64,000 nt of DNA from Moniliella sp. 'wahieum' (Eukaryota), in the NCBI GenBank assembly GCA_003971905.1, contig RSEE01000029.1, positions 248,001 to 312,000 of the forward strand, in the 5' to 3' direction. Of this stretch, positions 2,369-55,801 are shown piece after piece. Position numbers and translations under genes: made by a program. Within the stretch, counting starts at the first letter, position 1; the number at the start of each line of letters is the position of its first letter. The notes under the pieces are model-generated. The model saw nothing but the letters and a program-made list of their open reading frames with translations, did not search any database and was not told where the DNA came from.

Positions 2369-5300
2369 GCAGAACTTTGTGGAAACGAAGTCTCCGTCAT
2401 ATTTTTCCCCCTTCGCTATACCTCGGCGCGTAGACCCCGACGCTGCACTCTTTAACTTTCCGGAACCGTCCAAGCGGACCTCCGACCCAACCCGTCCTCA
2501 AGCAGTTTGAACATCAAAGGTTACTCCTCCACCCAGCCTGACGGAGCGTCTCTTTCAGTCACAAGATCAGCCCTGTCTGGTCCATCGTGACAGCTGGGCG
2601 ACAAGGCCCATTCTGGCAAACAGGATAACGGTATGCTGTCCTCTTTCATGGTGCCCACATGGCCCTAATTCCTGCGAGAGGAATGTTGATGCAGCTGCTG
2701 GGGGGCCGAAGAGAGAGCCTCGGCGCAATGCTTATAAACTGTGATGGACCGTAGAGGATGGGAGCGGTGGCCCGACCCCCATTTTTTCACTCTGATCACT
2801 TCTTAGGCTACGCATCTTTCGACTGGAGAAGCAGAGACCGAGGGAAAAGTGTAAGTTCAACATTTGGTGCGACATCAGATGTCAGAGGTCACGGTCGCTG
2901 CCGCGTGTTGTACTCTGCATTCCTCTCCTTTCGCCAATCCGTATTCCCCCGAAGGAGCCAGCCGAGGAGAGTATTCCTTTTCTCACTTGACCCGTTCCAG
3001 CAAAGATCCGTCAACTGTATAAGAAATGCGGCGATCATTATGGTATCGGTCCACTAACCTTGGCCGACAAAACGGTAGAAGCTGAGTATCTATGCCATTT
3101 TGTGATTGCATACTGTGCCACTCAAAAAGGCGAACAAAACATGTGGCTTACGCCTCGCCCATCAAGCTTCAAGCTTCAAGCAACAAGCATCAAGCTTCAA
3201 GGCTCGTTCCAAATCAGAAACTCCGCGAACTCACTGCACGTTTGGAGACGTGGGGATCATGAAAAGTAATGCGGCCTTGACCCAATCGAAAGTTGTCTGA
3301 TGGCCTTTTGTGACGACAGAGAGGGAGTATATCCTTCTGACCCCCCCCATTATACTTCGCCCATGATGTTTGTGTCCATTAGAAGCATAACACTCTGTGG
3401 CAGATTCAGTGCATTTCATGTTCTTTCCCGTGGTGCAGAAGTCATACACGAGAGGTGGCTTGGGACCATATCGCCCCTGATCTCGGAATATAATATAGAT
3501 TGTCTTCTTCTGTGGCCACATGGCAATCTCTGTTATGTCTTCCTTTCCGCCACGGTTGTTCCCAGGCGAATCAATCAATTATACCCCGTGTGGATCGCAA
3601 ACCAACCGTCAGTCATGTCATGTCTTAGTATACATATCATCATCGTCAACAACTTCCCACACTCTTCCTCTCTAACATTATTTTTTTACCCGCAAATGAC
3701 CTTCTTGATGGTTACACGTGATATACTACCATACCAAAAAGAGAATGGGGTATTTTGTCCACAATAACTGGTGGCACGGAGTGCGCAAGTGAAATGCTGT
3801 GTTGGTACTGCGCTCCGCAATCTTCTTCGTGTCGGGCGAGTCCGAAGACGGATAATGTGTTCAAGCGTGTCCGGCCGGGCGACGTGGGCTGTATGCGCAA
3901 CCGTGGACGTGGGGGATATTGATGTTTTTGACGACGAACTGCAGCCTAATGGTACCAATCAAAAGAGTTGTGGACGGGCTGACAGGCTGGACTCGCCGTT
4001 CCACTTGGGGTGGTGTTACATGTTACAGGTTCGATGTGTTACACATATACATGTGGGTCTCAAAGCATGGTATTGCTTGTCGATGGTATATAGGGCCGGA
4101 AAACATGATTGTGAGCCAATATGCTTCTACCCGTTCCAACAAGCCGACTCGATTCCCGACGACCTACACCGAAAGCGCGATACGGCAGAAACAAAACAGC
4201 CAGCAGTAATGCCATTGCTGTGAAAAACACCAGCGCTTTTTATCTGGCTTGTAACCGCGTGCAAGCAATTGTGTGGGAGGATTACGTTGTGCGCACTACG
4301 CAGTATTCGTATCATTCATCGTACGCCCTCTTGCATTTTCATTCAATCGAGCCGTCTTGTACACAGGTTCAGCATAATGGCGAGAGAAGAGTACTGCCTA
4401 TATTTTTTGTGAGTGATGAGTAGTGACTACTGAGTCTCAGTACTGTGAGTGCCTGAGTTCTGCGTTACTGAATCCAGGTGTATAATTGACCTGAGCGAGG
4501 ATCTTGAGGAAAGACAGAGCGAGTGTAAGAGGGGTCGAGAGAAGAGAAAACACAAGCATATCTGAGTCGCGCGCCCCACACAGCATATCACATTGTCACA
4601 TGTCACATGTCACATGAATGAGGGAGTTTCGTACGCGTCGGTCCAGTGTGCCGTATCATATGTCAGGCTGTAACACAGTGCCGTACTAGGCTGTGCCCCC
4701 GTTCCTGTAATGTGTGAGACGAGTGACCCACATCCTGCCCACACGAGGTCTCTGCCACAGGACCTCTGGACTTCTCGCCGCCCTCGGCGCCTCTCAGCGA
4801 CTCAGCCTGGCGTTTACACGTTCACATATCAGATGGATGCGCGCCTCAGCCTGAAGCTTCAGAAGCTTCAGATCCATCACGGGCCGCGCCTCAGACCCTT
4901 CAGAACTCAAAAAGGGGACAGATCCTCTCAGATGGTGTGGCATCCAGCAAGTGGCGCTGTTCGATCCTCTCTGCCAGCAATAGCGCCCTCCGATCCGCCC
5001 CTCACTCAGGCCCTATTATTAGGCCCCATAGGACTTCAAGCTAGCTTCAAGCTTCATGCTGAGAGGCCTCAGGCCTCAGGAAACGGTAACGGGAGTTTAC
5101 TGGTGACATGTTGTGGTTTTGCCAACAGTTACTAGTTACTAGTTACGGATACGTATACCCGTTGGACATGTTACTGGCATGTAGGCAATCACGACTTCGG
5201 GGGGGACATGAGCTTATCCTTGGCGCCTGTCCAGTGTCCTTCACACTGCTTGGCAAGACGGCGGGGCTGGAGATATGATGGGACGTTCAGCGCGGTCTAT

Positions 5301-6642
5301 AATACATCAACGTTCAAAAAACGTACTCAACGGAAGAGGCCCGGAGGGGGCGCCGGCGCTTGTCCCGGATTGCCTTGCCTGGGTGGGAGGAGAGTTGGAG
5401 AGTTGGCGAGTGGGGGAGTTGACTGGGTCTCGGCGCTGATTGATGATACTCGATACAGATACATGTGCATCATGTGCAATTCATGAGATCTGAGATCGAT
5501 CAATTCATCTCATTGTCCGCAGTGTAAGACTCTCCTAATGCGCCAGCCCCCATATCTTGTCTCGCACAAAACAAAGTGCAGACTGCGGTGCAGGTATGCA
5601 CATCACGCGCGTCACGCGTCACACGCCCCACATCACAACCCCCAAACACGCAGTACTTCGTTTTACTCAATTACTCAACCCTCAGTACCCAAGGTACTAC
5701 AAGTACGACTAGTGCTTGAAGCTTGAATCTCGACTTGAAGAAAAGGAGACTGCATTCTTGAGGCGGTTTCCTACACAGAGGGCTGTGGAGGGCGTCAGCC
5801 TGCGACAGCTCCGGGCCTCAGTGGCTCGCGCGAGGCATCGGAAGGCGCGTTGAGTTGTCTTGTATATTACGGACATCGGTGGGAGTTGGCCACGCGCAGA
5901 GAGGATCGCAGATGTGTTTGCCTGGCATACGGGTTTGTGCCGGATGGATGGATGGATGATGGAGGCCATTCCGACGTCGATGTTCCTGCGAATATGACAA
6001 TCGCCAAGCTGCGCGGGATCGGGACATCCTTCTGAATAGCGTATTTTAGGTTTTGCGCTTATTGGAGGATGCAGCACACTGCCTCCGCGCTTGCGTCTCC
6101 TGCAACGCGTGACGTCTGATGTGTGACACTGGCATAGGCACTGGATCGGACTAGTCTGGTCTGCTCTTGTCTCCAGCTAGTCCGGTCAAGCTTCGCTTCA
6201 CTAGTCAAATCACCGATGGCCTGGGCGAGTAATTCGATACGTGGTGGAGCGCACAGCACAATCGACGTCACCCACATCCGATTAGGCTAGACCGCAGCGT
6301 GCCTTCGCCCGCCGCTCACAGCCCCATTGTACAAAACACAGCGACACACACCGCCTCCCCACCGTCTTCCGCCCCCTCTCCCTCCGCCCTCGCCTCCTCT
6401 GCCTCCCTCACCACCTCCCTCCCTCGTCTCTTCCATCCCTCCTCCGTTCTCTCTCTGCCCCTCCCGCCCTCCCCCGCTGCCACCACCTCGCCCCCCGCTG
6501 CGACACATTCTTTTGCCCCCCTCTGCGCCCACCATCATCCTACCAGAAGCAGTACTGCGTGCTGCCCTTCGCCCACCCCCGTTGAAAATCCTCGCCCCTG
6601 TCGCCGCAGCATATCTGTCTTTCCTCTTGCCAGCACGCCAGC

Positions 6643-16491: not shown

Positions 16492-18379
16492 ACTAACCAA
16501 CCCTTTTTTGTCTCTCCGCCGTTCTCCTTTTTCTCGTCGCGTTTCCTCCTCAGTCTAGCACAATGTCGATTGCACCTCTGTTCTTCATGCCTTGCTCCTC
16601 TTGACGCTCTTGACGATCTCCCGCCACCTTGACGCTTTGCCTGTATTTTTACCCACATCAATCCAAAATCTGCTCCAGCATGTGATTGGCAAATGAAGTC
16701 CTTCTACACCCTTTGGCTCCTCGAATCTGCTCCCCTGCATAACCGTTTTGTACCGCAGGCTTTTGTCTGCTTCCCATGAGAAATACTTATTAGTGCCTCC
16801 CTATTCGCATCCGTCAAGACGCATGTTGTGTCTGCCATCGTAATGTGCCCTCACAACTGGCTACAAGGGACGATTAGTGTTGCAAACAGCAGAGTTGGAA
16901 AAAGGCTGCGGACTCACTGAGTACTGATGGTGCAAGGGGGGCGGGGGTGATACTACTAAGGACTGAGGACACCGTCTGTGTTGAACGTGTAATGTACGAT
17001 CCATTCCTCGCTACTGCATTCTTACGGTCTTCGAGTCTCGTGACGGCCTATAGGGTGGATGCCGACAGGTGCTGTGTGATGGCTAGGGGTCACCCCCATC
17101 ACCCCCTTATATTCGCCATACAGGAAAGGAAGTCCACCATCATCCAGGAAGGAGAACATCGCCTATACGACCAGCACAGGCTGCTGCTTATTAACAAAGA
17201 GGGCATTTTGAGGATGCTGTCCTCAGTCAGCGGCTACTTACCTCCTTTGTCGTGATTTCCTTCTTGTCTTGCTTAAACCATTATTGACAGAGCGAAGCAG
17301 GCGCGAAGCCTGCGAAAGCGCCGCGGCACTGTAAAATCGATCTGAGATCTGATAACATTTCCCTGTATCATACGGAGAAAAATAACTGTTCGTATGGGAC
17401 AGCGGAGAGACCAACAAACTTAATCTAATCACAACCGCTGTGCATCTATCATTGTGCCTGAACGATGATGAACTGAACTAACCTATGAAGCTCCCAGGCG
17501 GATGGCAACAGGAAACTGTGGGAGGCGGATGCATACATGTGGCTGGCGTATGCCACTTGTCGATGGCGTTTTTGCGGCAGAGAGGACATTATAATGTCGA
17601 CATCTTCACATCGTCGTTCCACGCGTTTTGGGCGAGCGAGCTTGAGTCACAAAACCGGGGAGTAGACTGGAATTATTGCTTCTGTGGTGGCCTATATAGT
17701 CGGACTTGAATTCAAGGTTGAACCCGATTACGCCGGTTATATCGGTTACCAGTTACCACTTACCGGTTATCCGTTACGCGTTACGCCCGGCCATATCCCG
17801 AGCGAAGAGTTGGTGGGGTGAGAAGGTATTTTGGCCGCACAGCACCTCAGGACATGCATGTCGCTTTTTTGAAATAGCCGAGGACTTTTTACTAGTCGGA
17901 AGATCCGAAGCTTTTGACGCACAAACAAGTCGCGAAAAGTGAGGCCCCAAACTCCAAGCTCTGATCCGAGCCCCAATTGTCTTAACAGGCCCGAGTCTGT
18001 AGTCACATGTCACAGTCAGCCACACTCCTTAAAAAGCAACAAAGGGGCCTCCTACAAAGCAATAAGAGATTGTGGATCAACGTGACCAACACACACTAAC
18101 GTTGGGCGCTGAGCCTCGCTGAGCGCGCGCCGAACTTTCATCTTCAACGTCAAAACGCGTCAAATGCATCTCAACTCTCAAAACGGCAATCTCTGTGTAC
18201 CTAAAAAACCGCCTCTCAAGCTCTTCAAGCTTTTGCGCGTTATACGCAGCGTTATTAGGGTGTGGCCGCACAGACCACACGCCACTTGAGGGTGGTCTTC
18301 GATGATCGATGGTTAATCGTTCAAGAGCAGCGATGGGATAGCATAGATCGCACCGGACGCAAAAGACCCCTCCCCCTTC

Positions 18380-18423
18380 TGCATCCATATCATTGACAGA
18401 GCTTAAGGCTGGGACAGGGGAAC
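18380..18423 (-). mobile_element. 44-bp 3'-terminal fragment of the CRE-like retroelement
   Basis: Reverse complement GTTCCCCTGTCCCAGCCTTAAGCTCTGTCAATGATATGGATGCA matches the 3' ends of the other copies. Confidence 0.8.
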
Positions 18424-18764
18424 ATAAAATGCAGCGTTATTCTTATTTCCCCTTTCTGCTGGTCGATGTGCAAGAACTAGACTGTAATATTCGTGACTTT
18501 TACTGACTGGAGTGACTTAGTGAAGCAAAAGCTGAGAGAGAGAATGAGATGTGAGATCCGTGAGGTCTCAGAGTTCACACTTTCAGCAGACGTTCGGAGC
18601 TGTGGGACGGTGAAGAGCAGGTAATATAGGGGGGCTATCGGTGCCAATGCATCGGGGGGGGGGGGCATTGGGGCATTATCAAACCCTTGGCAAACCACAT
18701 GTCGTCACATACATGTCACACATTGCAAAGACCCAACTCTGACTTATAAAAAAGTTTTTACACT

Positions 18765-18988
18765 GGATATCTACTACGTTCATCGATCCGTGTCCACATG
18801 CGCTACCTCGGGTACGGGACCGGATGGCGAGCACCAGAGGGGCCTGATATCCTGGCGATCCCCGTGGTTCCCCAGCAGTGGTGGCGCTACCAAGTAACAC
18901 ACGCAAGAGGAACGGGTCGGTTTATAGGCATAGCGTTTCCCTGTCCCAAGCCTTACTAAGCTTTGTCAATGATATGCATGGATGCAAA
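18765..18988 (+). mobile_element. ~220-bp 5'-truncated copy of the CRE-like retroelement
   Basis: GGGTACGGGACCGGATGGCG..CCTGATATCCTGGCGATCCCC..GCAAGAG..CCCTGTCCCA..TGTCAATGATA is colinear with 2158-2368. Confidence 0.85.
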
Positions 18989-21275
18989 GTGGTGCTCGCT
19001 TGAAAACGCTTGAAGCATGAAGCTTGAACGTTTGAACGTGAACCGTTGTTGAGTGCGTTGAACGTTTGATGAGATCTGGAGTCCTGATGACGCGCACCAG
19101 ATCCTTGAGGGTGATGCAATCGCACTGGTGGTGGTGGTGGTGGTCTAAAAGCCAACCAACAACGCCTATAGTGGAACATCAATAAGCAGCCACAGCCGAC
19201 ATCAGGCCTCAGGGGCTGTGGGGGTTGCGGAACAAAAGGAACACAGAAGTGACAAAACAACGGAACTCCTAGGCCTGCAGTGACTAGTGTGCAGCTAGTG
19301 ACTAGTGATTAGTGAGTACTGAGTAGCTTGTAGGGCCTGAAGCTTGAAGAGGGATTGAAGGAACGGAACACACGAGCCACTGTACTCATACTGAGTGGTT
19401 GAGTGTCGAGTACGTTTTGAGTATACGTGTTGAGTACGTGTATTCTTCAGATCGTTCGACGTTCAACGTTCTCAACGCGCTCAATGCATCTGAGATTCTG
19501 ATATCTGTTGAGAACGTTGAACGTGAGATCTGAGTTGCCCAAACGCTTTGAGCAGAGCAAGCTGGAAGCTCTTGAAGCTTGAAGCTGGACACGTGTCAGG
19601 CTCAGGCGGGCTGGAGCGAGCCGAAGAGTGCCCCGTGCACAGGTGTGTGGAGGCAAAAGTACCGCATAGCCTGCATAGCTCTCTTGCATGGTATCATGCG
19701 TGCTCCATACACCGCACCATGCATCATGATCATGCACCATGCGTGAAGTGACACATGTTGCATGGGCACTGTACCTGTCTCATACACACGTCTAACTTGA
19801 AATTGAAAGACACACAGCAGAATGGGGTGGTTTCGGGTGGGGCTGGTGTGGTGGAGGCCAGAGACGGGAAAGGAGGGTTGCGTGGTGTGTTCCTGCTTCC
19901 AGGGGTGGGTGGGTGGTGGTGTGGCGGGGGTGGCGGCGGTGGAGGCTGTGGAAGAGGTGGGATGGTGGAGTCTGTGTTCAACTGGGAACTGTGTGGTGGT
20001 GCGTTGCGGCCTGCGGCCCTGAGGGCTGTGACATGTGAGGCTTAGGCAGATGCGCCGAGTACGGAGTTATGAGACGGAGGCCTGCGGCGCAGAGGCGCTG
20101 TAGCGCTGCAAGCGCTCTGGCTCAGCGCTGGTGCTCAGCGGGGCTTGGAGCTTGGACGGAGATCGGGGGAGGAAGAGCAACACGACCAACACACACTAGG
20201 CAAGTGGCTGCGCCGGGTCTCCTCACATCGGCCACTGTGCACTGTGCCCGGCTGGGGCAGCTGCCAGGGGGGCGGCACGTGATGCGGAGCTGGCGCGGCG
20301 GCGAACAGCCACGGATCTCAACACCTTTCGTCCGCGCCAGTAGCGGCAGGCAGTAGGGGGTTGTGCCTTGTGGGAGGCTGTGGGGGCATGTGCGCTCAGG
20401 CGCCCCGGCTGAGCGCTGTGCATGTGAGCAAAGTTCGACGCCCGGAATTCGCATTTGGGCGGCGGGGGGGGCAGCGCAGGCACAGCGTGTGACTGGAATG
20501 GGGGGAGCAGCGCAGGATACAGGCGCCATGCGAGCGGGTGGTCCAACCGATCGGCATGCACATGGTGCGTGCTTGGGCGTTGGCGCGTTGGCCCAGGTGT
20601 TGGTGGGCAGCGGCGTCTCAGAACGCACCGCACGCTCTCACAGGCTCACGCCGTGCCCCAGCTGGAGCGCTGCCACTGAGCACGGGTGCTGTGCTGGTTT
20701 GGAGCAGAGGCACGACCGATGATCCATGCTTGATATTTGATGTCGATGGCCGGGGTGGTGACGAGGCGACCGGTGACGGCCTGCTGACTAGTGACTAGTG
20801 ACTAGCGACCGGTGACCGGCGCGGAGCGCTGTGCCTCAGCGCTGATCGATGACCGGTGACCGGTGGGCAGGTGACTGCCGCTGTGCGGGGCGGGCGGTGT
20901 GTTGGTGTCCACAGCGCAGCAGCAAGCGAGGCTGGCGCGGCCAGAGGGTGATTGTGTAATCGGATGGCATGCAGCCAGCCAGCCAGCCAGCCAGCCGTGT
21001 TGGTTTGCTCCTGCATCCTGCCCGGCAGGCGAACCTGGGGCACAGCAGATCGAGCACAGTGCCAATTGTGCGCAGACCCGAGCCAGACGCCAGACGCGGC
21101 AGCCGAAGCACCCCTCCCCCCTCCCCCCCCCGACGTCGCCACCACTGCCTTGCCCGCAGCTCTTCCTGACCCCGTCGGCTGCCACCCACCACCCGCCCCC
21201 CCTCGTACGCTTCCCGTTTCCTGCCGCTCTCCACCCTTCGCCCCTCGCACAGCCGCCTCGCACAGCCTGCGCACC

Positions 21276-28712: not shown

Positions 28713-28855
28713 TGTCATAGTCGGGGCTAAGGCGAGGGAGACCAGGATCGGACTAGGCCAAGGGGTGTAGCAATCGTTCGTGGGGAAGAAGCAAGAACAG
28801 AGGACATGGTGCGAAGTGGAAGGAACAGGGAAGGAGCGAGATCAGCCAAATGACA
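28713..28855. mobile_element. Short solo LTR, family A (143 bp)
   Basis: Termini TGTCAT...ATGACA. Perfect 5-bp TSD CAGAC (28708-28712 and 28856-28860). Homologous to 29761-29940 (opposite strand) and 43694-43841. Confidence 0.8.
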
Positions 28856-29940: not shown

Positions 29941-31831
29941 GTGATCCTACATTAGTATAGTTGAGTTCTGTGACAGGACTTGTTCGACCTTTGTCTTCTC
30001 CCTGCGTCAAACTTCCGGCCAAAGCATATGGTTCTCTGTATCTACACACTGCTGGGCACAAGTTCTTGGCATCTGCTCATCACATCACTTGAGTCTGTTC
30101 TTATTGGCTGTGGACGACTCGGGCTGGTAGGTAAATGAAGTGCGTATCAGAATGTCAGTAAGGGTTGGTCCTCTTCGCCAGCTAGTGAACACCATATATA
30201 ACCAGCGACAACTTCGTCTCCGAGTGCAAAGGAAGGCGACAAGGAGGGGCCCCACAAAAAGTTCCGTCGCCACTCATCGTTCCCGGCATGTCTGGATCGC
30301 GAAATACAGAGGTACGCCTCTCTTTTTTGAAGTCTACCAAGTGGAGTGGAATTGGCGATGATCGATGAGGTCGATGGGGCCTCAGCCTGAGGTCCAGGAA
30401 TGATGATGTTAATACGCACGCCCTCAGCGGCCTCAGCGGCCGTAGCAAGCGATCGAGCGAGTCCCTCGAAAAAAAAACACAGTTCTGTATCGCAATCGGG
30501 TCGGGTCCAGTCGAGACCCGTGTGTTAGGCATGTGGGGGAGACGCAAAAAGTCCGAAACATGCAGACAGAGCGAGCCCATCATTTAGTATTCGTAGCAGC
30601 CAGCGCTCGGCCTCCGAGGCTGCGTGCAGGGTTCGTCGGCGCTCAGCCTCAGCGCTCAGCCCAGGCGTGGCATTTCTTACTACTAGTGGAGCCCTTGGAG
30701 GGACCCCAAGCGTCTTGTGTTCCTGAGCCGAGGAGAGCCGAGGATGCACCCCGACGTGCGGAGGGGAGGACGGAAGGGGATGGACTCTATGGTGCTCCTT
30801 CGGGGTTTGGAAAACCGGAATGGCGCGCCAGCGGAGGAAGAAACATGTCAGCATAGGGATGAAAGGCGGGGTGCACACGGCAGGCTTGGGACATCAGCCC
30901 CCCTCGCTGCCCCCTTTCGTCTGATCTCAGACAACAAACATGCCAAAGCCCTCGGGCCGGCGTGACCGGGACCGGTGACTTCAAGCCTCAACGTCTCAAC
31001 GATCTCAACGTTCTACGCTCTATGTTCTACGTTCTCCGGTCTCCGTTTTACCCTCAATATTCAATGCCTCTCAAGGTTCAGAGTACGTTTTACCGTCAAC
31101 GCCTCAATGGCTGCCGCGGTTGCACACCCTTTGTTGATTTTCCAACAAAAGGCTTCCCGGCATAGTCTGCCAGGCTCTCTCCCCTGTGTGGCCCACCTCG
31201 GCTGACCAACCAGTTTGCCCTGACGCCCCCACCCCCTATTTCGGCGGTCGCGCGCGATGCGTAAATCCTAACATGTAGCACTTTAAGTGATACGAGATTC
31301 AGAATGGCGGCGCCGCGCGCTGGCTGCACACAGACGTAGAAGCAACGCGAGGACCTATTCCAGGAAGCAGAAACGCAGAAGCCCGGGGGAGCCGGGAATA
31401 GGCCCTCAGGCCTCAGGTCAGTTTACACCGGCAGGAGAGCCACTCTGAGACTCTTAGTTGCAAGTACTAACTGCCGAAAGTGATGATGATGATCGGTAAC
31501 CGGTAACCGCAGACTTCTTCGTCCACCTCTGTACTCGGGGAGTTTCTCCTTCGCGCCTTCGGCTCGACAGCCATTTTGATTACAATTGCAAATCGGCCAG
31601 ACCGACAATTAGAATTGCGGGAGGAGAGCGAGAGAGAACAAAAGCAGTCAAGCGGACCGCACGTTGTGCAAGCTAAGACTGATGGTGCCCTAGGTGAGGA
31701 GGGATACGTTGACGTGAGGAAAGGGGGGTGAGGCAGTCGGGCAACAGTCGTGGTAGAGGAACAGTAGGAAGGTAGGTCTCTTTAACCAGTAAGGAGTGTG
31801 CGTGTGGAGGAAGAGGAAGAAGGGAGGAAGA

Positions 31832-33928: not shown

Positions 33929-34967
33929 GGCCTGCGGTCGCAAACGAGAGAATGGTTAGGAATGCAGGATGAGGTGAGGCCTGAGGGTGGAACCCGGGAA
34001 CTGAGTGATTACTAACAGACCGATCGCCAGCAGCAGCGGAAGCGTGGCGAGCCGAGTGTGCAGTGTGCTAGGGGCTCTGAACGCAATGCGAACAAGGACT
34101 GCCTCCACCAGAAGCTGGGGCGCGGCGGGGGTTGAGTTGGGCTTGCAAGCAAGTGTTGGTCAATGGCGTTTGGAACTGGAAGCCTGATGACGATCAGGGC
34201 GCTTGGGGAATAGAAGGGTTGGAAGCCAGAACTGTACGCAACCGGGGACTCGCTCAATGCGCCAGGCGTTAACGGACACACTGGTGGAAAGAGGGTGCCT
34301 GGAGAAGATGGAAGATGGGAGTAAGGCAGGGGATGGCGTCGTGAGACGAAATGAAGAACGTGAAAGTCGACAAGAGATGGAGAGCCGGCTTGAAGTGAAG
34401 CCTGGCTGGGCGAGGATCGGGCGGCGTTGGGTTGACTAGGACTGTGGCGCGGCCGCCAGGTTGCGAATTGGAGCTCGAAGCTTGATGCTCGAAGCTTGAA
34501 GCTTGAAGGATGAAGCTCTGAAGATCTAAAGCCGGGTGATCGAGATGATCGGGGAGGCTTGCTTGTTCAGGCTTCGAAGACATCTGGGCTTTTGCGCTGA
34601 AGCTTTTTCGCTTGCACATTCAGGTTCAACGTTCCACTGACGCTCAGCGTCGCCGCAATTCAAGCTAGCTTCCCGTCAGTGGCTGAGCACACTCAACTGA
34701 GTCTCAGTACTGAGGCCTGAGGCTAGCTTCAGCTCCAGCTCCAGCTGTTTGGAGCTGGTAGCCAGCGGCCTGCTGCCCGTCATTGCTCCGCCGCCGCCGA
34801 TGTTAGCACCCAAGTGTAGAGCCCACAGAGGATGCGTGACCGGTGACACGTGCGGGATGGTATCGGATGCATGATGTGCATGATGCAGATGAAGTCACTA
34901 GTCACTAGTTAGTCCTAGTCCCTAGTCACCAGCCACATCACGCATGCGGCGGCTGGTCACAGACCAC

Positions 34968-35014
34968 GCATGATGCATGATGCATGATGCATGATGCATG
35001 ATGCATGATGCATG
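34968..35014. repeat. (GCATGAT)6+ heptamer tandem repeat
   Basis: Read directly; unit = ATGCAT palindrome + G. Confidence 0.95.
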
Positions 35015-35713
35015 TCCGAGGGTTGGCTAGGGTCGTGTGATGATGTGTGGTGGATGATCGATGATCGATGATCCGGGGACGCGATCGATGCCAGCCTCAC
35101 GCGCACGGAGCAGGATGGGGTGTGTGAATGTTGTGAAACGTGTGAACGAGAGTGACTGCTAGTGACTAGGTGACTAGCTGTTAGCTCCATGTGCGAGGCG
35201 GCCCTTTCGCCTCTGTTGGGCCTCCGGGCTGCCTTCCCCTGATCGCATCCACACCATCTTTTCCTGCCTTGTTCGCCTTCCACTGCCACACAGTACTAGT
35301 GGCTAATGACAGTGACTAGTGCCTTCTTAGCGTTTAATATTTAAGCGACTAAATCAATTACCCGACAACACAACCATACTTACGCGTTACGCAACATAAC
35401 GATGTTAGTCAACGTAGAGGCCCGTATGCATATTCCACGTGGAGGCTAAGACCTGAGCCTGAGCGCCTGGGTACGTCTGAGCAACCAGAGAACCTGAGGC
35501 TCAGGGCGCGCTCAGGCCCAGGGCTGAGCCTCAGCGCGCCTGAGCGCTGAGCGCCGCAGCGCCCTCATCGATCATCTGAGATCTGACGGGTGATGCGCAC
35601 GATGCTTCAAGCTTCAAGCTTCAAGCTTCACGTGTTAAGCCCTGTTTAACCTTAGGCCCTGTTCCATGTTAGGCCGTGTTCGGCCGGGTTACTAGGTTAC
35701 TGATGCTTAGGCC

Positions 35714-35766
35714 TTAGGCCGGTTAGGCCGGTTAGGCCGGTTAGGCCGGTTAGGCCGGTTAGGCCG
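35714..35766. repeat. (TTAGGCCGG)5+ nonamer tandem repeat
   Basis: Read directly; preceded by TTAGGCC. Confidence 0.95.
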
Positions 35767-38676
35767 AGTACCAATTAGGTCTTACGCTTACGCCTTACGC
35801 GTTACGCCTTAAGCGGCTTAAGCCATAAGCGCATAAGCCTTAAAAGCCTTAACGTTTAAATAAATTTAACCCGGCGGGAATCGATAATTGGGCCAGATGG
35901 TGAGCAAGAAGAGTAGATCGTTAAGCGCTAAACGTTGACTTGATTCTGCAGCACATCTCCTCTCGATAACCTGAAAGGCCGGCTTCTGCACGGGAGCATC
36001 CCACGGGAGACATATTAGAATTCCGTGGTACCACAGATCTCAGTATCTCGTGCCTCCTTCATTGTGCGTTCCGTTCATCGTTACGCGTTACGTGACGGCC
36101 GTGTATGATATGTAGTTTGTGACATGGTGTGACGCGTGACGAGTTTGACGAATGCATGTGGCCTCCGCGTTTTTACTAAAGTGTATATATCAACGACGAT
36201 GAATCTCTTGGGTGTTCGTGGGCGCGGATTCTCCGCGCTCTGAGACCTGATACCTGAGGACGGGGGCGGGGTAGCTGATACTCGATACATGGAGCAAGTT
36301 AGGCGTGAACGTGTGAAGATTGAATATTGAAGCTTGAAGCTTGAAGCTTGAAGGGCTAACATGTGACACGTGCCACCACGTCACGACGTCACTTTTGTCA
36401 CGTGTCCATGTCACGCGTGGTACATGCATGGCGTGCCATATATCACACGCGAGGTCGCATGCCACATGTCACACGCCTTGGTCCTGTCCATGGCATCGAT
36501 CATCGATCGTCCGTCACGCGTCACGCGTCACACATCATGCTTCACATCTCTCGGCATGAAATGAAAGGGCGGGTATATGCGAAGTAGGCCAGGTACCAAG
36601 AGCATTAATGCATGGAGAGAACTGGTGTAAGACCGGGTATGGAGCAACGCTAGAATGCCAGAAAAGCGAATGGCAGCGATCCTCTCATTTTCCCTGTGTG
36701 TAGTCCGGGCGAGCATGATGCATGATGTGCATGATGGTAGTTTTGGTCTGCTACGCGCTACGGCTAGTCGATGGGCCTGCAGCGCTGTGATCGATGATCT
36801 TGCGGAGGAAGCTGAGGCTCTGTGGCCTGACTCAAGCTTCAAGCTTCAAGAGCTTCAAGCCTCACCGGTCACCTCTCAGATCTCAAGTTTCAAGCCTCAC
36901 ACTCTCAGATCTCAGATCTCAAGCTTCAAGCTTCAAGTTGAAGCTTCAAGTTCAATGAACATTGAGACTGTGGCGCAAATGATGCAGGGTGCGCTGTGTG
37001 TAGGGGGGGGGGTTGGTGGTGCATGATGAATAGCGTGGCTGAGCGCTGATGCATTGATGCGTTGGCGTTGACGCGGCTGACTGTGAGGCTCACACCTGAA
37101 GCTCAAGTAAGGGCTAAGCTCCCCAGGCCTGAGGCCCAGGCCTCCCTCAGGGGTCGCTTGCATCATTAATCATCATCATTAATCATTATGCATCTATATC
37201 ATACCCCAGACCTGGGGCCTCAGGCCTCAGGGCCTGAAGTTCAGGGTACCCTGTCAGCATGTCAGATCTCAGAAGATATGGTGGACCGGATGCTGGTGTT
37301 TAGCGCTTAGCGTTTATGGGCTTAAAGCTTAAAACTTAAAGAAGCAGGACGACCCGGTTTCGCCCGGTGTCCCCTGGGAACCGACGGATAACCGGTAAGG
37401 CCGGTAACCGGTAACGCTAACGTTTAGCGCGTGCCGGCAACACTGCGAGGAACGAGTAACTAGTTTACATTATGGCATAACGCTTTAGCATAAGGCCTAA
37501 GAAGAGGCCTCCTAAGGTCTAAGGCCTAAGGCCTAAGGTTAGGCCTAAGGTATGGTGCGTGGTGCATGGTGGCAGATACATGGGATCGAGATACATGGGA
37601 TCGCCGAACATCGATCATCGATCCTCCAAGCTCCAAGCCTCCCGTATTTGTACCTGATTGTGTGTCACACGCCGCATGCTGCAAGTATGAATGTTTGCAA
37701 CATGTCGCGTGTCATATTCATACGCAACATTCCACGAGTCAGTTACGCGTCACGCGTCACGCGTCACTAGTCACTGTCATATTGATGGGGACGCACTGAC
37801 TGGTGCTGAGTACTGACGCATGACTTGAGCCTGCGGCCTGAGGGATTGAGATGCATCGCACCCGCTCGCCCCTCTTCCTCTTTGCCCATATCTTGCCGCA
37901 TGTCATGCATGTCACGGGACTCAATTTATTTGATGACTAGTGACTATTGCAGACAACCGTAACGGGCTCAGGCCACAGGCTGAGAGGCTCAGCGCTTCGC
38001 GCGCATTGGGTGACCGGTGAGGCCGAAGCCCATGTGCATGCAGCATGAGAGCATGCCCAGCAGATTTAAGGCGTTCTAAAATCTACTCGTTCGAGTTCAG
38101 TACGTTCAGACATTCGCCATACTCGATGCGTCCGCACTCCGAAACACATTCTGTGTGGGACTGCGGGTCAACTATTGACGCTTTTTGCCGAGCATACAGA
38201 CCTTCGGATGCGACACATACGACGTCTGGCACGCTGAAGCGCTGAAGCGCTGAAGCTTGAAGCTTGCCCGGTGATCGATCATCGCTGATCGATGATCTGG
38301 GGACGGGTGGCATTGTGGCTAGAATGCTGCGCCCTGCGCCAAGCGCCACATGTGCTCATGCCCTCACGCTAGGGTCTCAACCGTCGAGCACAAACACTCT
38401 TGGGTTTTAGTTCCAACTATGCATGATGCATGATGCATGTGATGCATGATGTGCATGATGGCTGAGCTGAGCGCTGGTATATGAATCTGACAAGGGATTT
38501 GGGAAATCGGTGGTCACCGATCACCGGTCAATATCAATATTCAATCAATCGATACCTCTTGCACATGTAACACTCCCGCGTCACAACGTTTACCGGTCAA
38601 TGAGGCGGATGCAGCTGATGGGAACCGACCTGCGTGTGCTGCTCTTGTGCTGGCTGCTCTTGGCGCCAAACCCGAC

Positions 38677-38734
38677 ACTAGTCACTAGTCACTATAGTCA
38701 CTAGTCACTAGTCACTAGTCACTAGCTAGTCACT
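38677..38734. repeat. (ACTAGTC)n array with ACTATAGTC and ACTAGCTAGTC variant units
   Basis: Read directly. Confidence 0.95.
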
Positions 38735-39627
38735 TCTCCTTGCACTTCTGCCGCAGGCCTCATTGTTCCGCCTCTTGCGCGCACAGGTTTGATTATCTCT
38801 TTCCGGCTCGATCCCCTTTCTTCCCTCCCTGTTGCACTACAAAGGTCACATGGAGACCCACATGTCCCATGAAAACGTGCGTACGTGGCAGAGCAGGGTA
38901 AAAAGCAGGCAATAGAAGAGGGAAGGAAAGTCGGAGCTGGAGGCGACGCTGCTGTGCAGGATGAGATGCATTGCGCAGCATGGGACGGTCATTGGGTGGA
39001 GAGGGGGAGAGAGAAGGGTAGTTATGGTTGCGGGGTTGAACTGGGATGGACTAGACTTGACGATGACAGTAGGAAGTGTTGCAATAAATGCCAGTATAAG
39101 GACTGTCAAAACCCTGTGTCACGGTCCTCGTAGCTAATCAGGCAAATCTTCTCACTCTGTTCTTCGCCGATTGTGTCCTCCTTTCCTCTATCAACGCATC
39201 CTTTGCTTCTTCCCTTTACTTATGGCCTCACACTCGTATCGCGAGACCCATACACTGTGCAGAGTATTATACAAAAAGCACTGGCCAATTTTTTTTTCTG
39301 ACCAAATGCAGACTTGTAGCGACGTCACGCGTCATGGTCCACTCGGCCATGGAGACCGCAATGAATGCCGAAGGTCTGAAGCGTTTAGGACAGCAGCGTA
39401 GGCGATCGATTGCGGGCGAGAGATAGGCGTTGGTGGTAGGAAGCAGGACGAGGGCTACTGGACAAGGCCGCTTACGCTGGTACGCGCCCATCAGCACCCC
39501 TTGAAGTCCGCGGAGCCTCGGGGCTAATGATGCCGGAAGTGCACCGCGATCGGTGAAGCCAGTCACTGTCGCAACCTGGCCGTGTTTATTATGTGGCACA
39601 CGATCGACCCGATTTAATGAATCAGGA

Positions 39628-39702
39628 GGTCGGTTTATTAGGTGCAGCGTTTCTTCGTCCCGCGTCCCAGCCTTAAGCTCTGTCAATCTCGTATGGCTAC
39701 AA
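39628..39702 (+). mobile_element. ~75-bp 3' UTR fragment of the CRE-like retroelement
   Basis: GGTCGGTTTATTAGG..AGCGTTTC..GTCCCAGCCTTAAGCTCTGTCAAT..TATGGCTACAA matches the other copies. Confidence 0.75.
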
Positions 39703-41661
39703 TTGGTAGAGATCGAGATTTAACAAATTTGACGATTGCACAACAGTTTTTTCTGCAGATGCGTGAATGAGAGGGAGGGCTTGAGGCAAGGTGGGGCAGT
39801 GTGGCTGGAACTGGCTGGAACTGAGTACTGATGTGCTGATGCGCTGATGGCTGAGCGCTGAGGCGCTGAGGCAACCACAATTATGTTTTGTCTTGGAATG
39901 TTGCCACACAAGTCGGAAAGAAGCGAGGTCAATTCAGGCACACGGCCGGGGGAGGTTGAGCTCGTCGAGTACATCGATTAAGCATTTCTTTTGGTGCCTG
40001 GTGCCCATATATGTTGGTGCATGCATGGCCTCACACCCGCGGACCGCCAATGTGGAACGTGCGCCGTCATTTCGCGCTGGACCCTTCCATTAGTAATTTT
40101 GCTGCAATAAGAGTCTCAGATCGCCCACCTTCGGGTGGGGTCGAACAGAGGACGGGATTAAGGCCTAAGGCCTAAGGCCAAAGGTGGGACAGGGGGCTCA
40201 ACAGGGTTTAGGCTCAGTCTGTCTGACGTTTAACGTTTAGCGTTTATAGCGAGCATTCGTACGTGAATGGGGGTTTGAAGGATTTAGACCGTATACGCAG
40301 AAGAACCAGGAAAGAGAGGACGTTGGCACCTTCCCCCTTAAGGAGCTCAGCGACTAGCTACCACGCCCGGGACGGCCTGAACCTAAAGCGGAGGAAACAC
40401 CGCTGAATAAATTCATGTCATTTGTTATGCGGCCGAGGTTATTGCGTGGTTATGCTATCGCCACCGTTATGCCGGTTATGCCGGTTAAGCATCACGCATC
40501 ACAAGCATCATAAGCCTCATAGTACATGTCATCGATCAACGATCAGAGGCATTGAGAACATTGATCAATGATCATGCATCATACTCAACCTGAGCGCCTG
40601 AGCGCGTACGTTCAGCGAAAGCGGTGCACGCCAATACACCTGGGCCGCATTGAAAGGATCCTATTATAGACGTCGCGCGGGAGCAGGCGGGAGCAAGCGG
40701 GAGCTGACGCGCTGACGTGGGTCCGATGGACCCTGGATGTTCTCAACGATCGTGATGTTGTGATCGTGAACGCGTGAACTGATACCCTGACGGAGCGGCG
40801 CAGCCGCCAAAGGCCGTAAAAGAGCGACCGCCTCTGAAACTGACGTACTGTTGACCGCTGACCGTCAGCGCTGACCGCCGCACACTGTGGAAGTCAGCTC
40901 GGCTAGGCCGCCAGGCACCAAGCAGCGTCCTGCAGCGCCAAGCTCGGTCGGTCCAGCTTCGCCTTTTGCCACCCTCTCATTCCGGTGCTTCAGTCAGTAC
41001 TCGGTTCATTCAATATTCAACGTACTCAACGTCCAACGAAGCTTCAAACGCTCATACACTCATCGACATCGTTCATCGAATTCAATATTCAATACGGATT
41101 CTCATCGGTCACAGGTCAACTGCATCATCTGTCATGCATCATGTATCATGACTCGGTATACGTACTCATCGAACTCATCGATCATCGATCATCGATCACA
41201 ACCAAGCTGGCAAGGTACTGCGTTCACACGTTCGCAAGAAAAGGCACGCCAATAGTTGCCACAGTAGTACGGCAGGGAGACGGGGATGGGAACGCCGGTA
41301 ACGCGTAACGCGTAACGCTCCGACCCATATGACTGTCACCTTTCGAAGTACCACAGTTAGTAGCTACAGTAGGCTTGTATCCTAGCCCCAGCTGCAGTGT
41401 AGCAATCCTGTAGATTCGGGACGACATTTCCTAGAAGAAGCGCCCCGTCTCATTCATTTCTTCATCACCACTCACTCGCCCATACGCCCCCCCCCCTTCA
41501 TGCTTAAGGCCTCTGTGAGTCGCTATATCGTTCCAAAACCTCGCCCAGTACCTTTCTCCGTTTCACAACCCCTGTGTCTCATGGCAATGTGTATTAGGCG
41601 AAAACTCAGACCCGACCCATAGGTTAGGGGTGCGTTTCGTTGGAGAACGAATGTAAGTTGA

Positions 41662-41776
41662 TCAAGCTTCAAGCTTCAAGCTTCAAGCTTCAAGCTTCAA
41701 GCTTCAAGCTTCAAGCTTCAAGCTTCAAGCTTCAAGCTTCAAGCTTCAAGCTTCAAGCTTCAAGCTTCAAGCTTCA
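41662..41776. repeat. (TCAAGCT)16 perfect heptamer tandem repeat
   Basis: Read directly; unit = AAGCTT palindrome + C. Confidence 0.97.
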
Positions 41777-43092
41777 TTCTTCAAAAGCTCAAACACCATT
41801 GACGGCGAACGGAGGTAGCGGAGAGGAGGTCTATTTACTCAAAATGTATCATCGCGGGGCAACTACGTTTTGTGTATCCGACGGGGTCGGGTGTATATTA
41901 GTGAGACCCTGTTGGCCGTATGCAGTGGTTCTAGAAGGTTCGCTGTGGGAAGGCGAAGTAGTAGGCTATACGACAGGTTTTTGGGCAGATCCCTCCACTA
42001 TGTTCCGAGGCGGTTGGGTTATCTCCGAACATAAGTAACAGCCCCACATTTCTGGTATTAGAAGTACCATGCAAACACGCGCCAGTCCTGTTTTAGGCGA
42101 GTGAGAGTCCCTAGTGACATTCACTAATCACCGGCCAATCACCACAGGCAAGTTATCCATCGTTGCATACCTCTTCGTCGGCAGCTATAGCCATGGTCGC
42201 ATGGTCTCATGATACGATGCTTAATACCCATTTTGCCCCATCTTGCAGAAGACTCCTTCAGACTGCTGCTCCCATTGTGGTGCACTCTGTCAGCAACTTG
42301 AAAGCACAGGCTGCGTCTTTTATATAGTCTTTACTTCTCTGCAAAGCTCCTACATGCCGTGCATACCCGCTCTGATATCTACACTTCATACACAGCCCGG
42401 TTAAAGCCTTGCCAACAGCGTTCCTCATCGACCATCCTCTCTCTTTCCGAAATCGAAGACCGCTTGCCTGTTTCGTCCTACCAACCAACGCTGGTATACA
42501 CATTGGTTTCCCTTCCACCTTTTTCTCTCCTTGCCGCTTGACGGATCACACACACATTCCCACAGGATGTGGGTATGATCCTTGTTCTAGATCTTCCTTG
42601 TCCCCTTTTGTGTCTCTTTCCCCTCATCACGCGTGGTCTACCGTGTGATAGCTTCTCCTTCTCCTCTGGTATATAAGGCGCCATTCCATGCAGCCTGAAT
42701 GAATACCTGTCGGCATCCGAAGCAATCTCCCTCCTACACCGCTCGACTTCTCTATCCATACTATTAGTACCCTTGCGAATTCACGGCTTGCGTTGGTTAT
42801 GCCGCAATGAAAGTAAAATAACGCTTGTCCTTCACTTACGATTCCGTCTCACACTGGTGTGTGCTTACCACGGTGGTGTTAACCGTGGTATAACGGCAGC
42901 GCAGGAACGCCTGGAGCTGCTGGAGCCCTCTGTGGGATCTTGTCGAGACCTACTCGCACTGCTTCTCGTCTCCTTCCTTTTGTGATTTTTGCACGCAGGC
43001 AGCCACACTCATACACTAGAGGCTCTATCTCCCTCGCCACGTCACCCTCTCTTGGTTCTGCACAGGATTTGAAGCCATGGACATACAGTGTG

Positions 43093-43438
43093 AATACCAG
43101 GGACGCACCCACGAACCGTTTTCCCTTTAGTTTTGACGAATACGCCCCCAAGACAGCGGGCAAGATGCTTGGGAAGTGGAAGGAATTAACTACTGAAAGT
43201 CTCAATGGAGAGATGGTTTACTGCTCGGATGTCTACCACGTTCATCCGTATCCACACTCGCTACCTCGTGTATGGGAACGGATGGCGGGCACCAAAGGGT
43301 CCTGATCTCCGGCGATCCCCTGCTTCCTTAAACGGGGTTGGCGCTAACAAGCAATACAGACGCCGGATGAACGGGCCGGTTCAAGCGCAGCGTCTCTTTG
43401 CCTCAGCCTTAAACTCTGTCAATGATATGGTTACAAAA
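43093..43438 (+). mobile_element. ~345-bp diverged 5'-truncated copy of the CRE-like retroelement
   Basis: KTAGKMLGKWKEL and RWFTARMSTTFIRIHTRYLVYGNGWRAPKGPDL match copy 2 (KWFLARMSTTFLRVHTRFLGYGTGW). Ends CAGCCTTAAACTCTGTCAATGATATGG. Confidence 0.85.
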
Positions 43439-43693: not shown

Positions 43694-43841
43694 TGTCACA
43701 GTCGTCGGGATTAAGTCGAGGGAGACCAGAGTCGAGAGGGAAACGCGGAGGAATGTAGCAATCCTGGTAGGGAAGAAAGAGAGCAGAGGACATGGAGCGA
43801 AGAGGAAAAACAAAAGAAAAGGGCGAGATGCTGTGGTGAGA
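43694..43841. mobile_element. Degenerate solo LTR, family A
   Basis: TGTCACAGTC..CGAGGGAGACCAG..TGTAGCAATC..GGGAAGAA..CAGAGGACATGG.GCGAAG is colinear with 28713-28855. Right terminus and TSD eroded. Confidence 0.7.
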
Positions 43842-51943: not shown

Positions 51944-52912
51944 AAAGGGGCGTGATGCAATGCTGGTCCATCGTGTGCACCTACGAGGCGAATGAATTTT
52001 TATCAGTTGCTCAAGGAAAAGTCGAGTGTTCTCCTGGCTGAATTTGTCCTGCTCGTTAGCTGCGCCCGTCTGCGGCCCTACTATTGTGACAACGGGGATA
52101 GTTTGCCAAGTCGTCTCCACCTGCGTTCGTGGCCTTCAATCAATGATTGTGACTCTGAGAGGGCCTCAGGCCGCTGAGGCGACCGATGCAACGCACCGAG
52201 CGCGCACTTTCCTGCCTTACTTCCTTCCTTACTTCCTTCGTCTTTTTCTTAACGCCATAGATTGCCATCCTTTTTCCGTGCCTGTTTGTGGTCATGGGTT
52301 TTCCTCGATCTCTTCAACATCTTCATCGGATGACATGGTGGTGGTCGGTCACAGAGTGGCAACAGAAGCTCCTCGTCTGGGTGCCCAGCATCGATGGTAA
52401 CCGGTAGCCTGAGGCAGCCTAAGGCCTGTCAGCATGTCAGGCCCTCAGGCCAGAGGGCCGCCCTGAGCGTGAGCCGACTGAGGGTGTGACAGGGGCCTGA
52501 GACGGAGGGACTAGGAGGGCTGGAATGGCGGAATTTGTGGCATGCATCATGCATCATGCATCACCCAATCGATGATTATCACGTGATACGCAAGCCTCGG
52601 CTGGCTTGGCGCAACGTTGGTGGCAACGCTAGGTGTGCCTTCTGTCGCAGCCGTCCTGTCTCCGGCACAGGGCAGCTTGCAATTCCGCTGCGCAGCAGTG
52701 GTAGTAAGCTTTGTGCTGCGCAGCCGAGCAGCCGGCTGGCCTGTCAGCTGTCCTCGGAGTTACGAGGCGCTGGTTAAGTAGGTACGTGTCATGCCCCTTT
52801 GCACTCCCTCGCCCTTTTCCAACTGACCAACACCAACGCTCCCCTCCCCCTCCCCCTCCCCCTTCCACTTCCACTCCCACTCCCACTTCACCTCCGCTTC
52901 CACCCTACCAAC

Positions 52913-55489: not shown

Positions 55490-55571
55490 GGACGGCTGGC
55501 GCAATGGTAGCGCGTCTGACTACGAATTCGTTGTAATCAGGAGGTTGCAGGTTCGACCCCTGCGTCGTTCG
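55490..55571 (+). tRNA. tRNA-Arg(ACG) with 10-nt intron
   Basis: Acceptor GGACGGC/GTCGTTC, D arm GCGC-AATGGTA-GCGC, anticodon arm TCTGA-CT-ACG-A[ATTCGTTGTA]A-TCAGG, T arm GCAGG-TTCGACC-CCTGC. T-run terminator at ~55591. Confidence 0.93.
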
Positions 55572-55801
55572 ACCCGACAGGGCGTCCTCCTTTTTATTTT
55601 TTGTGACTTCTCGCAACACCGCCAAAATAGCATTCTGTGCTCGGTCTACTGCACCCTAATAATGAGTAGCGTCCACAAATCCCATCCAGATGTGTCACGA
55701 GCGTTTTATAGCCCACACTAATTATAGGGAAAAGTGCATTATTCATGGGCGCGACATTCGCATGCAGCCAATCGACGAGGAGGTTGTGTGAAAGGACGAA
55801 G

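Follow-up and report, generated by a model that had tools for sequence, protein, structure and literature searches.

TNA-anchored palindromic heptamers in intergenic DNA of a bunt- and smut-fungus relative and the five-direct, two-inverted grammar of their elementary event

Heptamer arrays and the rule of their units

The window analysed here, by which we mean the whole 64-kb stretch of contig RSEE01000029.1, carries period-7 tandem arrays throughout its length, as detected with Tandem Repeats Finder (TRF). Their units follow a common rule in which the trinucleotide TNA is followed by a 4-bp palindrome, that is, A-XYY'X'-T-N with X' and Y' complementary to X and Y. A previous reading of this DNA made from the sequence alone (hereafter the sequence-only reading) had described positions 34440..41780 as saturated with such units of nearly every possible sequence, and this description held: 65 of the 108 distinct runs begin in that interval, where perfect runs fill 1097 of 7341 nt, and 14 of the 16 possible 4-bp palindromes are in use, only AATT and TATA being missing, which gives 23 unit kinds once the two strands are collapsed. 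The runs nevertheless extend beyond the noted interval, from 1124 to 61155, with smaller clusters at about 3.1-6.2 kb, 16.9-20.9 kb and 30.3-31.5 kb and scattered single sites, almost all of them outside open reading frames (ORFs) with Pfam matches (Table 1). The arrays that had been listed were likewise found where they had been placed, except that AGTACT proved to be a single palindrome and ACATGT at 18710 lies in a degenerate copy.

Counting perfect tandem runs of at least 2 copies, we obtained 76 with period 7, which make up 1408 nt, compared with 56 for period 6 and 12 for period 8. A rotation that yields a 6-bp palindrome plus N exists for 57 of the period-7 runs, the other 19 having no palindrome, and the pair that closes the palindrome is A....T in 55 cases, G....C in 2, and C....G or T....A in none. 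Over all primitive 7-mers, a palindromic rotation is available to 10.4% and the A..T form to 2.6%, so that 55/76 runs fit A-XYY'X'-T-N where 2.6% would be expected. The two G..C-closed runs, CACTGTG x2 at 20233-20247 and CCCTGGG x2 at 24152-24165, may be chance or rare off-rule events.

The sequence-only reading had proposed a comparison with shuffled sequence and with GNC, ANT and CNG controls, and when we ran it on the window the outcome was clear. We found 149 copies of the 10-mer formed by TNA, a 4-bp palindrome and the same TNA, whereas 100 dinucleotide-preserving shuffles of the 64-kb window gave 2.28 +/- 1.62. The controls stay near background (GNC 3 vs 5.6, ANT 3 vs 2.6, CNG 6 vs 5.3), as do all 15 non-TNA outer base pairs, the highest being ANG with 13 vs 3.1. 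When the second N is instead the complement of the first, which makes a perfect 10-bp palindrome, just 7 matches are found against 2.6 expected. Counts of 10-mers, and of the 12-mers treated below, overlap inside long arrays, and the independent units are the 108 maximal runs into which the 149 matches collapse. Variants of the geometry, counted against 60 shuffles, showed that the 3+4 arrangement of TNA and 4-bp palindrome is exact: a 2-bp palindrome after TNA gives 13 vs 10 expected, a 6-bp palindrome 2 vs 0.7, TA in place of TNA 5 vs 4, and TNNA 6 vs 0.8. The heptamer observation is therefore real and far above chance. Two simple origins were considered and rejected, namely that TNA arose from CNG by deamination, since CNG units are at background, and that a general fold-back activity is at work, since longer palindromes in general show no excess in the window.

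Selected functional elements, either binding sites of dimeric proteins or a chromatin or structural signal, could in principle account for units that are concentrated in intergenic DNA and have the kind of symmetry that dimeric proteins read. With the inner four bases and N free, however, just T..A would be left to read, and the arrays decay by mutation while neither their copy number nor their unit type follows a pattern across sites, which leads us to consider selected function highly improbable.

Table 1. Coordinates of heptamer arrays, related repeats and genes in the window
Feature	Position	Strand	Evidence or remark
Densest gene-poor stretch of TNA + 4-bp-palindrome heptamers	34440..41780	.	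65/108 runs; 1097/7341 nt in perfect runs
Degenerate (TGAAGCT)n, 7.9 copies, 75% match; perfect core 34491-34508	34468..34523	+	TRF, run list
AGTACT, single 10-bp palindrome TCAGTACTGA with complementary N, not tandem	34706		direct reading
(TCACTAG)n array	34893..34929	+	TRF, run list
(TGATGCA)n, 6.7 perfect copies	34968..35014	+	TRF, run list
(TGATCGA)n, 3 perfect copies	35053..35073	+	TRF, run list
Three neighbouring short events TGAGCGC, TCATCGA, TGAGATC	35540..35586	+	
(TCAAGCT)n, 3.9 perfect copies	35604..35630	+	TRF, run list
TTAGGCC heptamers, then period-9 (TTAGGCCGG) x5.9, a 7-nt direct repeat + 2 inverted nt	35706..35766	+	
Mixed TTACGC(G/C), TTAAGC, TTAACGT units	35781..35859	+	
TGAATAT unit abutting (TGAAGCT)3 in register; junction reads as a new event at pentamer ATTGA	36314..36353	+	
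(ATCGATC) and (TCACGCG)n arrays	36494..36531	+	TRF, run list
TGATGCA heptamers and period-9 variant TGCATGATG	36713..36736	+	TRF
Heterogeneous array, TCA in register, inner 4-mer AGCT/CCGG/GATC/near-palindromes; then orientation flip to TGAAGCT	36832..36955	+	
(TCAGGCC)n	37216..37231	+	
(TAACCGG)n, interrupted	37389..37415	+	
(TAAGGCC)n	37491..37551	+	
(ATCGATC)n	37605..37623	+	
(TCACGCG)n, last TCA common to TCACTAG event	37745..37775	+	
Period-8 (CGCTGAAG)3, on the minus strand TCAGC+GCT+TCAGC, 3 inverted nt; then (TGAAGCT), (TGATCGA) units	38232..38297	+	
(TGATGCA)n with 2-nt interruptions	38419..38460	+	
(TCACTAG)n, 6.9 copies	38676..38734	+	
TGAGTAC and TGAGCGC events inside degenerate CTGATGCG array	39820..39870	+	
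(TAAGGCC)n	40159..40184	+	
(TTAACGT)n	40226..40246	+	
(TCATCGA)n, exact TCA boundary on both sides	41175..41198	+	
(TAACGCG)n	41298..41318	+	
Longest array, 115 nt of perfect (TCAAGCT), 16 units + closing TCA	41662..41776	+	
Second cluster: TCAAGCT, TCACATG, TCAGGCC, TTACTAG, TGAGATC, TCACGCG, TGAAGCT, TCACTAG	3162..6207	.	
Third cluster: TGAGTAC, TGAGATC, TTACCGG, TTACGCG, TCACATG, TGAAGCT, TCAGGCC, TGACTAG, TGACATG, TGATCGA, TGACCGG	16916..20865	.	
ACATGT in degenerate copy	18710		
Scattered single events TGATCGA, TCAGCGC, TCAATAT, TCAGGCC, TAACCGG	30356..31509	.	
Isolated (TCATGCA)3 array	52541..52563	+	
Cyclin	7144-8322	+	ORF with Pfam match
GTP cyclohydrolase II	9327-10837	-	Pfam; split over at least 2 reading frames
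Protein kinase with fungal KA1 domain	21931-25469	+	Pfam; split over at least 2 reading frames
Complex I 49-kDa subunit	47960-48817	+	ORF with Pfam match
SNAPC3	48845-49888	-	ORF with Pfam match
Mn-superoxide dismutase	55746-56858	-	ORF with Pfam match

The elementary event: five direct and two inverted bases

The lengths of the maximal runs gave access to the smallest step from which the arrays are built. Runs of 10, 11, 12, 13 and 14 nt number 7, 8, 25, 15 and 13, respectively; random flanks would give mostly 10-nt runs, yet the peak is at 12. Two or more nucleotides outside the TNA...TNA core prove to be templated on at least one side in 87/108 runs, against about 12% computed for random flanks, and in 69/88 of the two-TNA runs; the templated XY is missing in the remaining 21/108, about a fifth. 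The two commonest boundary classes are TNAXY-Y'X'-TNAXY, with 15 runs, and its mirror image, with 9, and a full 14-nt duplication with 2 templated nt on both sides is seen in 3-4 runs compared with 21-24 that are templated on one side only. Isolated 12-mers stand in flanks that bear no likeness to the unit and are therefore newly born rather than the remains of decayed long arrays. These data show that in the elementary event the pentamer TNAXY becomes TNAXY-Y'X'-TNAXY, a gain of 7 bases of which 5 are direct and 2 inverted, which creates the 6-bp palindrome AXYY'X'T and a second TNA.

We then expressed this event as a grammar, counted on both strands, in which a direct repeat D starting with TNA is followed by k inverted-complement nucleotides of the 3' end of D and by D again; the matrix for a 5-nt D was compared with 40 shuffles, and the count was repeated in a second run. 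With D of 5 nt the 12-mer with k=2 occurs 189 times against 0.3 expected, and the tail on either side of this mode is also above expectation, with 18 vs 5.4 for k=0, 10 vs 1.2 for k=1, 5 vs 0.1 for k=3 and 1 vs 0 for k=4. When k is held at 2, direct repeats of 3 to 8 nt other than 5 give at most 16, the value reached against 0 expected by D of 7 nt, which corresponds to the period-9 arrays TTAGGCCGG (x5.9 at 35714), TGCATGATG and AGCTTCAAG. The period-8 array at 38232 is a k=3 form and the period-9 unit at 4853 a k=4 form. The short direct duplication accompanied by inverted nucleotides that the sequence-only reading had proposed is thus borne out, and the 189 k=2 cases are not the pure direct duplications without inverted bases that would have spoken against it.

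The same reading had placed the break centrally near TNA, and here it must be corrected, as the event is not symmetric. The inverted bases come from the XY end, 5 nt from the T, in 189 cases, compared with 18 for the TN end, and 16 of these 18 are ambiguous since XY equals TN in them. Within the event N, X and Y are free: among 85 isolated 12-mers N is C in 37, G in 32, T in 11 and A in 5, which tracks the availability of pentamers. The A of TNA is indispensable (145 cases, compared with a combined 12 for all other bases at its position), while the base that precedes NA in the first unit is T in 120, A in 8, C in 9 and G in 8 (T = 83%, 120/145). The T of the second TNA can be a copy of the first T or an inverted copy of the A, which makes 5+2 inseparable from 4+3.

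The grammar also bears on the in-register meetings of different units, which the sequence-only reading had rightly pointed out. Ten of 26 neighbouring array pairs within 35 nt of each other lie at multiples of 7, against 3.7 expected, and 4 pairs of different units have one TNA in common. A 5+2 event at the boundary pentamer, in which the terminal TNA of an array is joined with the next two bases outward, reproduces three of these 4 junctions (36321/36328, 36905/36919 and 37750/37764), and the fourth (20843/20850) requires one extra substitution. New events can accordingly take the pentamer at an array edge, so that TNA stays in the 7-nt register and the palindrome changes. The grammar gives no explanation for switches of orientation inside arrays. 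One such switch lies at 36919-36955, where a TCAAGCT array flips to TGAAGCT and then to TCAATGAACATTGA, which yields the 13-nt odd palindrome CTTCAAGTTGAAG and a second inverted pair.

Lineage distribution and candidate mechanisms

As a control for lineage specificity we used 121 unrelated public metagenome loci, each with (TCAAGCT)3, which total 457,577 nt with a G+C content of 28-65%. Non-AGCT 12-mers of the 5+2 form number 127 in the window (2.0/kb), 85 in its 7.3-kb region (11.6/kb) and 20 in the control loci (0.044/kb), the window being 45-fold denser than the controls, and no control locus has more than 3 unit kinds, compared with 23 in the window. A lone AGCT array is thus a common microsatellite, but the family of units is lineage-specific. 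The same array style, including in-register mixed units, is clear in two of the metagenome contigs, L067 (1370 nt) and L097 (621 nt), and weaker in L063, L031 and L070. L067 and L097 hold several different TNA + palindrome units within about 1 kb, and one in-register mixed array among them runs TGA AGCT x3, TGA AATT, TGA AACGT, TGA AGCT, TCA AGCT. The contigs that bear this style are probably from relatives, related fungi in the case of L067 and L097; the Pfam matches of L063 are helicase and zinc-finger domains only. Since L067 and L097 are independent contigs, their shared style argues against an artefact of one assembly, and the units of the window are short, interspersed with unique sequence and intact genes, and present as mutated and nested variants, so that a sequencing or assembly artefact is barely conceivable.

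The control loci also bear on ordinary slippage, by which quasi-palindromic 7-base units would form slipped-strand hairpins and expand preferentially with no special break or enzyme. Quasi-palindromic microsatellites share with our arrays the head-to-tail repetition of identical units, a copy number that varies (here from 2 to 16.4 across the 76 perfect period-7 runs) and strands that pair with themselves, in our arrays at 6 of every 7 positions, and (TCAAGCT)3 arrays do occur sporadically in at least 121 unrelated metagenome contigs. Slippage, however, copies directly and cannot generate the 2 inverted bases found in the commonest class, the 12-nt seeds; it leaves the T..A-only closing pairs and the exact 3+4 nt unexplained; longer or shorter palindromes are not favoured; other genomes have the AGCT array without the other units; and chance proto-repeats would carry no unit rule, yet 55/76 runs obey a rule met by 2.6% of 7-mers. 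As the whole explanation slippage is therefore quite unlikely. The sequence-only reading had held that ordinary slippage microsatellites would not share such a rule; the long perfect arrays (up to 115 nt and 16.4 copies, at 41662-41776) nevertheless need ordinary slippage in addition.

We tentatively favour, at somewhat less than an even chance, the view that the heptamers are cumulative products of a lineage-specific insertional process that combines a staggered break with one hairpin-processed end and is followed by slippage. The break would have a 5-nt stagger with its clean end directly 5' of TNA, and fill-in of both ends would give the 5-nt duplication. The TNA-distal end would become a covalently closed or fold-back hairpin and be opened about 2 nt off its tip, leaving inverted nucleotides by the P-nucleotide chemistry of hAT, Transib, MULE and RAG reactions. 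The gene for the agent would lie elsewhere in the genome and encode a transposase-like enzyme or some other nuclease directed to TNA, either belonging to a mobile element that inserts and leaves or cutting without an element. Replication slippage would then lengthen some arrays, in one instance to 16 copies, point mutations and small indels would erode them, and coding DNA would be kept free of events by selection. The combination of a direct repeat of fixed short length and a few inverted bases, most often 2, fits a staggered break with one end resolved through off-centre opening of a hairpin.

The duplication is 5 bp in Transib and RAG transposition and 8 in that of hAT elements, and the position at which Artemis opens a hairpin is about 2 nt away from its tip. 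The window heptamers would be best filed as a variant of hairpin or P-nucleotide footprints, an assignment in which both the enzyme and the hairpin are deduced from the products. According to passages of PMC5499845, the flanking DNA acquires hairpins in hAT, Transib, MULE and RAG reactions; their opening is probably the work of host enzymes, Artemis being one example, and footprints remain after end joining. The heptamers resemble those footprints, and the P nucleotides of V(D)J recombination, in their fixed direct duplication, whose dominant 5 nt fits Transib and RAG but not hAT, and in the few inverted-complement bases of the adjoining flank, variable in number with a mode of 2. They differ in an outcome that is almost invariant, in having TNA at one end of the duplication, and in a density of about one event per 110 bp.

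Several observations weigh against the hairpin-processed break. A classical cycle of insertion and excision would form hairpins on both flanks and leave inverted bases on either side, as hairpin footprints do, whereas here they are one-sided, and the asymmetric placement of TNA at one end of the 5-nt duplication would be unusual for transposase dimers. The near-constant 7-nt outcome is tidier than typical end joining, and the simple fill-in product TNATNA is not enriched in the window (112 vs 88 +/- 15). The 21 runs that lack a templated XY need later mutation or a second event type. The parse is ambiguous between 5+2 and 4+3, and 25 first units have no leading T. The hairpin, like the transposon or nuclease, is deduced from end products in one 64-kb window. 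Finally, in agreement with the sequence-only reading, which saw no responsible enzyme, none of the 127 ORFs of at least 130 aa in the window has a transposase domain in Pfam, and no element with terminal inverted repeats (TIRs) and a TNA-type duplication was found there, the matches being arrays against arrays plus a few at chance level.

The asymmetry makes a serious rival of polymerase strand-switching at a nick 5' of TNA, left for example by base-excision repair or Okazaki-fragment processing, as one-sidedness is then explained while neither an element nor a dedicated nuclease is required. Extension from the nick would displace a flap of about 5 nt, the displaced or nascent strand would be copied briefly to give 2 inverted nt, and after religation of the flap a 7-nt loop would become the insertion. 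Such a switch would account for inverted bases on one side only and for a constant short direct repeat with a variable inverted part of 0-4 nt, it fits the absence of an element or transposase in the window, and Y'X'TNAXY, the 7-mer that is inserted, could fold back since it forms an odd palindrome. Against this, the strict A and the 83% T stay unexplained, as does the lineage specificity, and its ligation geometry would be awkward, with the nick adjoining a 3-nt loop. We regard strand-switching as unlikely on balance.

A third possibility is that of classical excision footprints, a type of reading also put forward for the 10-bp repeats of Ustilago maydis. If a cut-and-paste element with a 3-bp TNA duplication left two terminal bases per end, the footprint would be TNA-XY|Y'X'-TNA, which matches both the shape of the 10-bp core (duplication, 4 nt, duplication) and the identity of N in the two TNA copies, a 3-bp direct repeat on both sides seen 149 times against 2.3 expected. 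A 3-bp TNA/TWA duplication is typical of the IS5 and PIF/Harbinger lineage, whose elements would likewise repeat TNA directly on both sides of the inserted bases. Element ends, however, are fixed sequences, yet 14/16 palindromes are used; XY is the adjoining host flank in 87/108 runs and hence templated locally, giving a filler of many sequences, whereas PIF/Harbinger elements generally excise precisely according to a passage of PMC4561436; a 3+4+3 scheme does not accommodate the period-9 form or events with 1, 3 or 4 inverted nt; and 65 independent insert-and-leave cycles would have to have taken place within 7.3 kb without a single element surviving in the 64 kb, which also speaks against any classical insert-and-excise cycle. 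Fixed-end footprints thus seem improbable. In yeast, short duplications have been attributed to trapped topoisomerase II and fill-in at staggered cuts, where the length of the direct duplication likewise reflects the stagger of a protein-made break; our events differ in having 5 nt rather than 4, extra inverted bases and a requirement for TNA.

The sequence-only reading had suggested an undescribed process, and a full-text literature search, which included five 14-nt array strings, returned no description of TNA-anchored palindromic heptamers in fungi. The supplements of PMC4081816 other than files 3, 13, 14 and 15 gave 0 occurrences, and PMC8120014, PMC10849329, PMC9172201, PMC4041787 and PMC5811872 hold no relevant passage. 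Novelty is less certain in view of Ustilago maydis, for which passages of PMC4081816 refer to Schirawski et al. 2010 and to Laurie et al. 2012 (Plant Cell) on "numerous small (10 bp) repeats" proposed as footprints of past transposable element (TE) activity, 26 of them between effector genes of cluster 19A. As far as those passages describe them, these repeats come from a host of the same fungal subphylum as ours, are short and scattered between genes, and have been read as scars of DNA breakage and rejoining; 10 bp is also the length of TNA + 4 + TNA, so that they may be the same phenomenon. The likeness drawn from that source is one of size and intergenic scatter, and the two are possibly identical, but those passages make no mention of the 5+2 grammar, one-sided inverted bases, a tail of inverted lengths or a register rule. 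The event grammar is what is new here.

A more far-reaching version of the hairpin-processed break, which we consider doubtful, is that an element-independent TNA-directed nuclease, a domesticated Transib/RAG-like enzyme or a new one, cuts non-coding DNA of this fungal lineage repeatedly, each repair writing seven bases, five of them copied and two inverted, and that the Ustilago 10-bp "TE footprints" come from the same process. If so, at least 15% of the 7.3-kb stretch would have been built de novo by the scar of one enzyme. Were the grammar genome-wide, it would offer a clean, countable signature of a break-and-repair reaction in a plant-pathogenic fungal group, with a defined site (TNA), a stagger of 5 nt and hairpin-like processing at about 2 nt, and the responsible enzyme could be traced through the genomes that bear it. 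It would also reveal a route by which non-coding DNA can grow and diversify without lasting transposon copies, which bears on the puzzle that some smut genomes are nearly transposon-free and yet hold many small "footprints". For practical use the arrays are a rich source of strain markers, which standard screens for 1-6-bp microsatellites miss; microsatellite surveys of such fungi usually stop at 6-bp motifs.

Gene content and other repeats of the window

Gene content, read from the stop-to-stop ORFs of the window compared with Pfam, marks it as eukaryotic and fungal. Besides the genes of Table 1, Pfam-matched ORFs encode a PQ-loop protein, a C2H2 zinc finger and an L-PSP endoribonuclease, and the frame splits in GTP cyclohydrolase II and the KA1 kinase are probably introns. 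The closest named relatives of the superoxide dismutase are from Tilletia species, at 73-78% identity, followed by other Ustilaginomycotina, and two further proteins match it at 86-88%; judged by this protein, the DNA therefore comes from a relative of the bunt and smut fungi. A tRNA-Arg (anticodon ACG) of 82 nt lies at 55490-55571 on the plus strand, directly downstream of the Mn-superoxide dismutase gene, and is the sole Rfam/ARAGORN match across the window.

The segment from 26000 to 47000 has unusually few genes, with one sub-threshold Pfam match, PAS_3 at 31835-32248, and is the site of most arrays and of two copies of a dispersed repeat. This family has copies at 1591-2369 (+), 26324-27086 (-), 43095-43437 (+) and 18765-18989 (+), with 73-84% identity between them, a common 3' end near TCTGTCAATGAT and a variably truncated 5' end, like a non-LTR (long terminal repeat) retroelement; its ORFs have no Pfam match. 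The copies were also aligned as candidate before and after states of the heptamer event and rejected for this use, as none of the indels between them, with lengths of 9, 6, 6 and others, has the TNA form. Two TIR candidates, of 155 bp (37826-37983) and 422 bp (36813-37237), were rejected since their "termini" are TGAGGCC-type units. Another repeat, short and present as a pair, occupies 28720-28821 and 43704-43807.

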